Under the pieces are notes generated by a model, which was not told the origin of the DNA, ran no database searches, and worked only from the letters and a program-made list of their open reading frames with translations. 62,891 nucleotides of DNA from Candidatus Woesearchaeota archaeon (lineage in GTDB: Archaea; Nanobdellota; Nanobdellia; Woesearchaeales; GW2011-AR9), in contig JAHFSP010000004.1 of NCBI GenBank assembly GCA_023265685.1, positions 1 through 62,891 on the forward strand, written 5' to 3'. Of this stretch, positions 4,465 to 5,825 are shown one piece after another (the stretch's first letter is position 1; each line of letters opens with the position of its first letter). The position numbers and the translations under genes were made by a program.

Positions 4465-5079
4465 TTAGTCTTTAATAGAATATTCAGTTCTTAATTTTTG
4501 TTGTACTTGTTCAAATAATTCAGAATCGAGTAGTACTTTGTGTGTCCCTTTACTCCCTTTGCCGGCAAACTTCACTTCACCAAGATAGGCCCTATTGGAT
4601 AAGATCTTCTTAAGGCCGTTGACACTTACACTATGTATTTTGGCGAGCTTCGTGAGGCTCAGGTCGCCTTCTAAGAATAAGGCATACATTGAGCGCACGC
4701 GCGCTGCGTTTTGTTCTTCGATGATTAATTTCTTATTTATCATGATATACCCTAGCGGAGGTTTTGTAATTGCCTCTCCTTCTTGAAATTTACGTTCCAT
4801 GCCGAAGGTAGTGCGCTCAGCGATAGAATTTTTGTATTTTCGAAACGAATTTAGTATGTTTCCGTCTATTTTTTCAGCAATATATGTGGCGAAAGATTCT
4901 TTACCATTGGGGGCTAAATAGTGACAAATTGAGCATAAAGTGATGAGATTATTTAGTTCATTTTTCCCCCCCATTGATCTTAAATTGATATGGTGTGCTT
5001 CGAGTTTAGCATTTTGAGACGTACTGCATTTTTGGCAGGTGAAATCGTCTCGTTCAAATGTTTTTTTGCGTAGATTCAT
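4465..5079 (-). CDS. HNH endonuclease fused to the helix-E/recombinase DNA-binding domain of serine recombinases
   Basis: N-terminus CQKC...AHHI...GGKNELNNLITLCSICH (HNH); C-terminus ERTTFGMERKFQEGE...PPLGY...ILSNRAYLGEVKF...GTHKVLLDSELFEQVQ (recombinase domain). Confidence 0.85.
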   Translation of the reverse strand: MNLRKKTFERDDFTCQKCSTSQNAKLEAHHINLRSMGGKNELNNLITLCSICHYLAPNGKESFATYIAEKIDGNILNSFRKYKNSIAERTTFGMERKFQEGEAITKPPLGYIMINKKLIIEEQNAARVRSMYALFLEGDLSLTKLAKIHSVSVNGLKKILSNRAYLGEVKFAGKGSKGTHKVLLDSELFEQVQQKLRTEYSIKD

Positions 5080-5825
5080 GGTGTCGAAGGGTTATTTTTG
5101 AAGTATAATTCTTCTGAAATGAGAGGTTTATGGGATCCTTTGTAGAGTTTTCCACGATATTGTACCTGGCCTATGTAGGTGGGGTTTTTGATGATTTCGT
5201 AGAAGGTGGAGACAGGTAGGTTGAATTTGTGACAAATTTCTTTGTAGGAGATGCCTGCAGTGTGCATTTCATAGATTGTTGCTACTTTGGTTGAATCAGT
5301 AGGGTGGGGAACTAAACGATTGTTTTTGTAAGTATATCCATACGGTGCACGATTAAGCACTTCACCGGATGAGATTTTTTTGTCGAAAGCAAGTTCGACG
5401 CGTTCTTTGACCATTCCTCGTTCTAACTGGGCAAAAACTCCTATAATTTGAAAAAAAGCTTCCCCCATCGCAGTTGTGGTATCGATATGTTCTGTTACAG
5501 AGGTAAAATTGACACCTTTTGTTTTAAGATCCTCAAGTACTGAAATAAGGTCTTTAAGTTTGCGAGAAAAACGATCAATCTTATAGACTAACAAAACGCT
5601 GAATTTTTTGGCTTGGACATCATTAAAAAGTGCTTTGAGGGCTGGTCGGTTGAGAGTTCCGGCACTATATCCACCATCTGTATAAATATTGTAAATATTC
5701 CATCCTCGAGCCTTACAAAACGCTTTACATCGATCTATTTGAGCGTCTAGAGAGATACCTTCTTTGGCCTGTTCTTCTGTCGAGACTCGTACATAGATGG
5801 CTGCTGTGGGGTCAGATGATGTCAT
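5076..5825 (-). CDS. Serine recombinase (resolvase catalytic domain + recombinase domain, no zinc ribbon)
   Basis: IYVRVSTEEQ (catalytic Ser), RPAL, KIDRFSR, APYGY, IIKNPTYIG...GSHKPLISEELY; 4-bp overlap with the HNH gene. Confidence 0.92.
   Translation of the reverse strand: MTSSDPTAAIYVRVSTEEQAKEGISLDAQIDRCKAFCKARGWNIYNIYTDGGYSAGTLNRPALKALFNDVQAKKFSVLLVYKIDRFSRKLKDLISVLEDLKTKGVNFTSVTEHIDTTTAMGEAFFQIIGVFAQLERGMVKERVELAFDKKISSGEVLNRAPYGYTYKNNRLVPHPTDSTKVATIYEMHTAGISYKEICHKFNLPVSTFYEIIKNPTYIGQVQYRGKLYKGSHKPLISEELYFKNNPSTP

Follow-up and report, generated by a model that had tools for sequence, protein, structure and literature searches.

A serine recombinase gene overlapping a gene for an HNH-recombinase-domain protein in a Woesearchaeota genome: a candidate site-specific recombination module of DPANN archaea

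The window analysed in this work, i.e., a stretch of 62,891 nt of contig JAHFSP010000004.1 from the 1.28-Mb assembly of a DPANN archaeon (Candidatus Woesearchaeota; GCA_023265685.1), carries on its reverse strand two coupled genes, which are the subject of this report. Gene 1 (5076-5825) encodes a compact serine recombinase of 249 aa, composed of the Resolvase catalytic domain, helix E and the recombinase DNA-binding domain (Recombinase, PF07508; hereafter RD), the latter belonging to a group of RDs referred to here as clade A. Gene 2 (4465-5079) encodes a 204-aa protein, in which an HNH head (residues ~1-57) is joined through a conserved linker with a helix-E remnant (58-99) to an RD (100-204), and this architecture is hereafter called HNH-RD. 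According to the open reading frame (ORF) calls, the two genes overlap by 4 bp (a start/stop ATGA at 5076-5079).

The gene 1 protein is matched by the Pfam models Resolvase (PF00239, 1.4e-41, residues 8-154) and Recombinase (PF07508, 2.6e-7), and the motifs YVRVSTEEQ, with the nucleophile Ser14, and KIDRFSRK (DRxxR) identify it as a serine recombinase. In NCBIfam, it is best matched by CcrB, CcrC and XisF, in their N-terminal parts, with only the first ~240 model positions covered. A zinc ribbon and a coiled coil, following the RD, define the large serine recombinases and control their directionality; Pfam finds Resolvase and Recombinase only in the gene 1 protein, which ends at residue 249, right after the RD, and has neither of these elements. 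It does not resemble the small resolvases/invertases either, as its C-terminal half is an RD and HTH_7 is matched at E = 0.004, below the curated cut-off. The protein shares 65-73% identity with recombinases encoded 5' of HNH-RD genes elsewhere and with the lone recombinase occupying the same slot in a related genome, G212.

In the gene 2 protein, Pfam recognises HNH (PF01844, 2.3e-8, residues 15-53) and PF07508 (5e-6), and residues C15, C18, H29-H30, N44, C49, C52 and H53 of the HNH domain are all kept. In a profile search against PDB sequences, the head was matched by the HNH domain of HfmIscB (9k2z, 1e-9) and the tail by the RD of A118/LI integrase (4kis, 3e-9), and NCBIfam reported the HNH segment of IscB at 6e-15. 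The AlphaFold2 model, built from a 61-sequence alignment, has a mean predicted local distance difference test (pLDDT) of 89 and contains a beta-beta-alpha element at residues 26-54 (beta 26-30, beta 45-49, alpha 50-54), helices at 60-68, 73-81 and 86-99, and the RD at 111-200. Foldseek superposed this RD on that of A118/LI integrase (4kis; root-mean-square deviation 1.9 A, 116 columns) and linked the head to the HNH domains of McrA, IscB, Cas9 and Gme. Helix E is shortened and kinked at the fusion point, with the pLDDT falling to 64-71 at the junction. The beta-beta-alpha-metal fold, the His/Asn/His residues and the Cys4 zinc site place the head among the HNH/His-Me finger domains, and with this apparently complete active site gene 2 is a candidate nuclease or nickase. 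The protein has no serine catalytic domain, since PF00239 is not matched and the homology to clade-B recombinases (see below) begins at helix E. It is also distinct from IscB/OMEGA nucleases, of which only the HNH segment is matched (positions 182-263/314; 55 bits versus a cut-off of 175), the protein being 204 aa long and the window having no Rfam match.

These results bear out several points of the original prediction, which had been made from the sequence of the window, namely two coupled genes with a 4-bp overlap, a compact serine recombinase with intact RVS, DRxxR and recombinase domain, and a zinc-bound HNH nuclease replacing the resolvase domain with its H, N and H residues (H30, N44 and H53, beside four zinc cysteines) intact. 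The homology claimed for the C-terminal halves of the two proteins also stands (BLASTP, 28% identity over 104 aa, E = 9e-17), but they are not recent paralogues and their RDs belong to different clades. Moreover, at least five independent assemblies carry an identical gene 2 protein within the same order of genes, so that the fusion is not an assembly artefact; with 64 full-length relatives (see below), it is not a one-off either.

The origin of gene 2 could be traced with the sister species of the same genus (GCA_016188115.1; genome G211, locus L008), which is syntenic across positions 1-11800 of the window, with flanking orthologues 73-88% identical. In place of genes 1 and 2, its slot holds a single intact 256-aa clade-B serine recombinase, P0003, which is 39% identical to the gene 1 protein, 80% identical to the gene 2 protein over 132 aa (from P0003 residue ~125/138 onward) and 86% identical over the gene 2 RD. 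Nucleotide homology revealed by blastn runs from the 3' flank to position 4824 (from ...IAERTTFGMERK onward) and begins again at 6446. The orthologous part of gene 2 (4465-4824, reverse strand; residues ~86-204), together with the 3' flank to 4396, aligns with L008 6840-6412 at 79% (4396-4824 in the window). Between the blastn boundaries, 1621 bp of the window (4825-6445, reverse strand), comprising the HNH head, gene 1, the control region and an ORF of 106 aa (ORF106), replace 1014 bp of the sister genome, i.e., the upstream region and the clade-B catalytic domain. No residual similarity was found between these upstream parts of the window and the sister (global alignment z = 0.3-0.5 versus shuffled sequences, with 26 for a conserved control). 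As the dN/dS ratio (nonsynonymous to synonymous substitution rates) of the gene 2 RD against the P0003 RD (0.07) and its dS (1.32) are similar to those of the flanking housekeeping genes, the two RDs are, judged by their sequences, orthologues under purifying selection in both contexts. Since the gene 2 RD is orthologous to that of an intact clade-B recombinase in the same slot, this comparison indicates that the HNH head replaced a recombinase catalytic head; the polarity of the swap was set by parsimony, clade-B recombinases being widespread and having co-evolved domains.

The same picture emerged from the RD tree. Clade-A RDs, including that of gene 1, form their own clade (starred branch, support 99), while HNH-RD, RD-only and clade-B recombinase RDs interleave, gene 2 and P0003 being joined on a starred branch with support of 100, and on the starred branches the head type must have changed at least 4-7 times. 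A second pair is formed by P0004 and P0026, a clade-B recombinase from the same study, whose RDs are 98.8% identical at the nucleotide level and whose boundary lies a few codons from the same point. The P0004 contig (L226, 749 bp, ENA) starts with 116 bp that are an inverted copy of RD-coding sequence, followed by half of an HNH head and the RD, and it may be a rearranged, decaying locus or an assembly chimera.

The content of the slot, located between the PAC2 and PhoU-like genes, varies among related genomes: in G212 it is a clade-A recombinase on its own, with 71% identity to gene 1, in the sister genome G211 the clade-B recombinase, and in G221 (L210 6906-9486) a 206-aa C-terminal fragment of a tyrosine recombinase, ORFs for secreted proteins and a VapBC-like PIN pair. 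No HNH-RD gene was found in G211, G212 or G221. The slot is a hotspot for recombinase-bearing insertions. In the intergenic block next to it (6446-6744), common to the window and the sister species, sequence conservation is unusually high, especially at ~6475-6507 (CTTGGGCCGGCCCCAATCAATGAAACTCAGGCA). This block was considered as a family-wide site and rejected, as it is conserved only within the genus and not in other genera of the family.

A search for proteins joining HNH to PF07508, and for their gene neighbourhoods, uncovered a recurrent family tied to recombinase genes. The protein search gave ~20 clusters with this architecture, and a further 160 loci, belonging to Woese-, Pace- and Nanoarchaeota, came from scanning collections of genomes and metagenomes. 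Among the non-redundant full-length HNH-RD genes (n = 64), 30 lie directly 3' of a clade-A serine recombinase gene, 19 directly 3' of a gene for an XerA-like tyrosine recombinase and one directly 3' of a clade-B recombinase gene, and for the other 14 no partner could be recognised or the upstream DNA was too short; the gaps between recombinase and HNH-RD genes range from -50 to +12 bp. The co-conservation of the pair, on which the original prediction depended, holds in so far as a recombinase gene stands directly 5' in ~78% of cases, but in the 19 loci mentioned above the partner is XerA-like and not a serine recombinase. In Pace- and Nanoarchaeota the module occupies one syntenic place, from cdc6...HAD to rpS9/rpL13, with an upstream recombinase that is either XerA-like or of clade A. 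A canonical XerA is missing from most genomes of the clade-A type, and in those of the XerA type the best tyrosine recombinase is the one encoded beside the HNH-RD gene. In three assemblies whose completeness is not established (G202, G203 and G205), a clade-A recombinase and HNH-RD occupy the cdc6-rpS9 slot and no tyrosine recombinase was detectable, which suggests that the serine recombinase may have displaced XerA there.

Within the order of the window, the full HNH-RD architecture was present in 1/201 genomes, and a small clade-A or clade-B recombinase gene near PAC2/RpoL is common across the order. Mantel tests showed that the recombinase, the HNH head and the RD all co-vary moderately (rho 0.31-0.57), a result that does not decide whether recombinase and HNH travel apart from the RD. 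Literature searches found no published description of the HNH and PF07508 architecture or of DPANN serine recombinases, in agreement with the original prediction, whose author knew of no such system, and the pair apparently belongs to a widespread, undescribed archaeal module.

The HNH domain is fully intact in 42 of 58 full-length members (72%), gene 2 among them, and the general-base histidine was lost in six of the 58. One relative, P0002 (323 aa, from a Logan contig), has tandem HNH heads with the catalytic pair HH in the first and YH in the second. Common shorter relatives (~177 aa), with a looser link to recombinases, have lost the HNH core but not the CxxC...CxxC cysteines, linker and RD. 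The region of linker and helix E is among the best conserved parts of the family, nuclease-dead forms included. The existence of this large short-form family, together with the full-length members deprived of the general base, would be accounted for if gene 2 were a DNA-binding regulator in which the nuclease is irrelevant, or a functionless, decaying remnant of a disrupted clade-B gene. We consider this improbable, as gene 2 keeps every HNH catalytic residue and zinc ligand, selection on its RD is strongly purifying (see the dN/dS above), the identical protein recurs in independent assemblies and most full-length members are fully intact. The nuclease-dead HNH-RD proteins found in DPANN archaea have the same zinc cysteines, linker and clade-B-like RD as gene 2 and are likewise encoded near XerA or serine recombinase genes; gene 2 differs from them in its complete HNH active site, its translational coupling and the orthology of its RD to that of an intact sister recombinase.

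An anti-phage defence or addiction module, with a toxin-like nuclease riding beside the recombinase, was also taken into account. The HNH head weakly matches the HNH domains of DpdF and ZorE, and the slot is variable, with the VapBC-like pair in G221. However, the PADLOC matches are to generic HNH domains only, with none for gene 1 and the neighbouring ORFs, and on IMG/VR viral contigs only the HNH head found matches, none of them a relative with the full architecture. Such a function would also leave the strict link to recombinase genes and DNA sites unexplained, and we regard it as very improbable.

In the DNA 5' of gene 1, the sole CTTAGG/CCTAAG cluster, the sole CTTAGG-N-CCTAAG palindrome and the sole AAGGGWWCCCTT of the 1.28-Mb genome are all located within 230 bp of this gene, and three dyads, spaced ~85 bp apart, can be distinguished there. 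The first, the 26-bp dyad TTCCCAGAAGGG-AA-CCCTTATTGGAA (5863-5888, reverse strand), lies 38-63 nt 5' of the gene 1 ATG, and its core, AAGGGAACCCTT, has a single exact match in the genome. It is a candidate clade-A crossover site (site I) and, placed near the gene and overlapping the control region of the operon, is most likely the site of gene 1. Between this dyad and the ribosome-binding site there is a degenerate clade-B-type half-site, CCCTATGTGTCAC (CCCTATGT; 5849-5861, reverse strand), which sits where relatives have CCCTAAGT(T/A)nAC, with a spacing 6 nt shorter and one base different. The second dyad, termed type II, GTTAACTTAGG-GTT-CCTAAGTGCA (5949-5972, forward strand), has clade-B-type arms and a 3-bp centre and is a candidate site for an HNH-RD dimer; its core has a 7-3-7 layout, ACTTAGG-AAC-CCTAAGT (5953-5969), and is the only CTTAGG-N(0-8)-CCTAAG palindrome of the genome. 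The third, dyad-like CTTAGG-TA-CCAAAG (6039-6052, reverse strand), is the weakest. The comparison of flanks with relatives, envisaged in the original prediction as a way to att sites, gave the allelic boundaries, but no boundaries of an element with att sites. As the window contains no tRNA gene and no Rfam family match, and a repeat search at ~3400-7000 returned AT-rich pairs at chance level only, the module was not called an integrated element with att sites.

Corresponding sites were found in the relatives. Genes of clade A (n = 28) have the dyad TAAGGG-(AA or TT)-CCCTTA ~55 nt upstream, 17 with AA and 11 with TT centres, and upstream of the G212 orthologue of gene 1 the arms are unchanged around a flipped, TT centre. 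Genes of clade B are preceded by ACTTAGGG-NN-CCCTAAGT (left arm TTTATATACTTAGGG), where NN is CA, TG, AG, CT, TT or AA, with the left arm overlapping a TATA-like box. A non-palindromic centre is expected of serine-recombinase crossover sites, and none of the 46 clade-A and clade-B sites has a palindromic one; as the chance value is 0.12 when only the six distinct dinucleotides are counted, the asymmetric centre is suggestive only.

One clade-B-type half-site, CCCTAAGT(T/A)nAC, comes ~13 nt after the dyad in loci of clade A. This extra half-site was present in 26 of 27 such loci with an HNH-RD gene and in one of six without it (Fisher 1.5e-4; here and below, the association tests compare loci of ~12 kb, not whole genomes, and ignore kinship, i.e., are not corrected for phylogeny). 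The half-site, adjoining the crossover-like site and co-occurring with the gene, has the properties of the site of an accessory binding partner. In clade-B loci a third half-site is present regardless of the HNH-RD gene, which is consistent with the clade-B RD itself reading this motif. Type II dyads, AACTAAGG-TAA-CCTAAGTGCAC, recur 5' of both kinds of operon and are matched by the 7-3-7 dyad of the window. By these motifs, the candidate HNH-RD sites adjoin the crossover-like dyad, as would be expected if, according to the original prediction, the HNH domain were placed at a recombination site. In loci of the XerA type, the layout is analogous, with a dif-like site and an extra dif-type half-site before xerA. 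In five loci and others from Pace- and Nanoarchaeota, the dif-like site is ACTTCGTACAA-CCTATA-TTGTGCGAAC, located 30-130 nt 5' of xerA and followed by a TATA-like box and then by the extra half-site GTTCGTACAAT just before the xerA start codon. Furthermore, in eight loci, oriented AACTAAG(C/G)TAACCTAAGTGCAC repeats were observed 150-1900 nt 5' of the recombinase gene. They occur every 150-800 bp between small ORFs 5' of the recombinase/HNH-RD operons, an arrangement reminiscent of a gene-cassette array or local regulon; in the window, only one such repeat is present, facing the other way.

According to the original prediction, the two proteins could pair as heterodimers by way of helix E and the homology of their C-terminal halves, with one HNH and one serine active site at the same recombination site. 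The translational coupling of the genes, the retention of the C-terminal two-thirds of helix E in gene 2 and the good conservation of the linker and helix-E region even in nuclease-dead forms speak for this arrangement. However, the two RDs, only 28% identical and from separate clades, are associated with different arms (TAAGGG for clade A and CCCTAAGT for clade B), and in 19 of 64 cases (~30%) the HNH-RD gene is paired with that of a tyrosine recombinase, an enzyme devoid of helix E. Gene 2 also lacks the dimer-forming part of helix E and the surface of the catalytic domain, both known from the structures of gamma-delta resolvase and Sin, and the modelled helix is kinked at the low-confidence junction. 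In view of the different RD clades and half-sites, the XerA partners and the kinked helix E, the proposal is not supported as stated, and we assign it only a small probability.

Loci with an intact HNH domain and clade-B loci appear to exclude each other. A clade-B gene or a full 8-2-8 palindrome was found in 0/65 intact-HNH loci versus 28/126 (Fisher 5e-6), clade-B genes co-occur with nuclease-dead forms only, and the sister species has both an intact clade-B gene and the 8-2-8 palindrome ACTTAGGG-AG-CCCTAAGT. The main rival explanation is a homing-like one, which we treat as possible but doubtful. A selfish HNH-RD protein would cut full clade-B sites, i.e., the 8-2-8 palindromes 5' of clade-B genes, in genomes or chromosome copies without it; repair of the break from the HNH allele would swap the clade-B head and control region for a cassette of clade-A site, clade-A recombinase and HNH head, and the join would fall at the first homologous sequence, the helix-E/RD boundary. 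The window and the sister are exactly such an allele pair with respect to the starting point of homology and the replaced segment, the boundary of P0004/P0026 is at nearly the same point, and the heads were repeatedly swapped on the RD tree. The clade-B-type dyad of the window itself is 7-3-7, not 8-2-8, the distribution is patchy (one genome of the order, and absence from G211, G212 and G221), the catalytic residues are decayed in ~25% of members, one member has the tandem HNH duplication, and IscB, a mobile-element nuclease, has the HNH domain most similar to the HNH head of gene 2.

On the other side, the cognate half-site is kept in genomes with HNH-RD and missing from clade-A loci without the gene, which is the opposite of a classical homing target, and long-term synteny with moderate co-divergence of recombinase, HNH and RD suggests mostly vertical descent. 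As the divergence of the RDs equals that of the species, the swap is not demonstrably recent. In addition, the odd P0004 contig, with its inverted 116-bp end and truncated HNH head, may be chimeric, the exclusivity could reflect three alternative types of recombinase competing for one slot, and in the relatives the normal type II site has this 7-3-7 form, which is not obviously a mutated 8-2-8 target. In a narrower version, which seems to us rather unlikely, HNH-RD would be a protein-guided "recombinase killer" that takes the RD of the resident clade-B recombinase by in-frame head replacement, cuts clade-B crossover sites in every chromosome copy still bearing the clade-B allele and spreads the cassette by break repair. 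Carrying the RD of the clade-B recombinase, such a protein would be automatically aimed at the crossover sites of that recombinase, and repeated rounds of this process would explain the interleaved heads on the RD tree, the mutual exclusion of intact HNH-RD and clade-B sites, and the nuclease-dead, domesticated derivatives beside XerA and others.

Taking together the domain architecture, the conservation of the operon, the orthology of the gene 2 RD to a recombinase RD, and the sites with their co-variation with the gene, we tentatively favour, at somewhat less than an even chance, a different reading, in which gene 1 acts on its own dyad and gene 2 is a separate, site-specific HNH protein anchored beside this site and the promoter. 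Genes 1 and 2 would constitute a chromosomally located module for site-specific recombination in DPANN archaea. Gene 1, resolvase-like and related to large serine recombinases, would act on the unique 26-bp dyad with the AA centre beside its own gene, and the RD of gene 2 would recognise the CCCTAAGT-type half-sites and dyads flanking this crossover-like site. As its RD comes from a different (clade-B) serine recombinase, gene 2 would be a separate protein rather than a heterodimer partner. We infer that an HNH nuclease or nickase would in this way be anchored one to eight helical turns from the recombination site and the promoter, where it could cut DNA, act in the autoregulation of the operon and direct or aid recombination in cis. 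Its counterparts beside XerA in other lineages and, elsewhere, nuclease-dead derivatives may have this role too.

Several observations weigh against this interpretation. The assignment of sites to proteins rests on co-variation, which was not corrected for phylogeny, and the half-site beside the dyad of the window is degenerate and 6 nt closer than in the relatives. About a quarter of the full-length members lack a catalytic histidine, which, together with the large dead family, indicates that the nuclease is dispensable in many lineages. In XerA-type loci, no CCCTAAGT site was found at a fixed position near the dif-like site, and a common accessory mechanism for both recombinase families is consequently not demonstrated. 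Finally, the presence in one of 201 genomes is very patchy and fits a selfish element better than a housekeeping factor.

The favoured module shares features with several known systems. The large serine recombinases (A118/LI, Bxb1, phiC31; CcrA/B; XisF) share their Resolvase domain, helix E and RD with gene 1 and the clade-B recombinase, and the gene 2 RD superposes on that of LI integrase, as described above; unlike them, gene 1, gene 2 and the clade-B recombinase all end after the RD, without zinc ribbon or coiled coil, and a serine catalytic domain is absent from gene 2 altogether. It is a classic arrangement for a resolvase gene to stand beside its own res site, and, as in the resolvase/res and Xer/dif systems (Tn3/gamma-delta, Sin, beta recombinase; XerA/dif), the recombinase gene lies here beside a unique dyad and extra half-sites, the dyad overlapping, as in resolvase/res, the promoter region of the module. 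The accessory sites, however, are apparently read by a different protein with a nuclease head. In comparison with Xer/dif, the clade-A recombinase holds the xerA and dif slot in related genomes, mostly without XerA, whereas the present genome has both the serine recombinase and one XerA-like tyrosine recombinase (12010-12807, forward strand; the only one in the genome, with a single PF00589 match and 208 bits to NCBIfam recomb_XerA_Arch).

The modular HNH homing endonucleases (I-HmuI and free-standing phage HNH genes) likewise carry an HNH head on a separable, sequence-specific DNA-binding domain, are patchily distributed and have some decayed active sites, and gene 2 resembles them also in lying at an allelic-replacement boundary. 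It differs in that its DNA-binding part is an RD with helix E taken in situ from the replaced gene, in that it is operonic with a recombinase, and in that its probable sites are kept in its own locus. The IS607 and IS200-605 elements, with TnpA and TnpB or IscB (OMEGA), also pair a recombinase or transposase gene with a nuclease gene, and the gene 2 HNH is most like that of IscB; in contrast to OMEGA, gene 2 has no RuvC domain, guide-RNA scaffold or Rfam match, its targeting is predicted to depend on a protein domain, and the locus is not an insertion sequence.

Some further features of the window and the genome should be mentioned. The module is flanked by ORF154 (3859-4323, reverse strand), encoding 154 aa with a signal peptide, and by ORF106 (6063-6383, reverse strand; 106 aa). 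Neither has homologues in ~300 loci, elsewhere in the genome or in the sister genome, nor any Pfam, PADLOC or PHROG match. At ~46-48 kb of the window, the GC skew turns from positive to negative. The assembly has its sole cdc6/orc1 gene elsewhere, on contig C33, and the sign change may therefore mark a terminus or a switch in the orientation of the genes. On contig C38 of the same genome (~17.4-19.3 kb; L003 1360-2826), an ORF for a 205-aa HNH protein lies directly 3' of a gene for a 282-aa N4/N6 DNA methyltransferase (SPPY); the two probably make up an ordinary restriction-modification pair with no relation to gene 2.

If the favoured reading is true, nature has repeatedly exchanged the catalytic head of serine recombinases for an HNH head on the same body of helix E and RD, producing chimeras of the kind that protein engineers build by hand. 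Gene 2 would then represent a compact 204-aa nuclease or nickase targeted by a protein domain, whose specificity could be read from the sites of the neighbouring recombinase, and the module would be a protein-guided counterpart of the pairs of TnpA with TnpB or IscB. To our knowledge, nothing is known about site-specific recombination in the ultra-small DPANN archaea, and the loci described here would then provide entry points into this process beside or instead of XerA/dif, including the possible takeover of the xerA slot by a serine recombinase.

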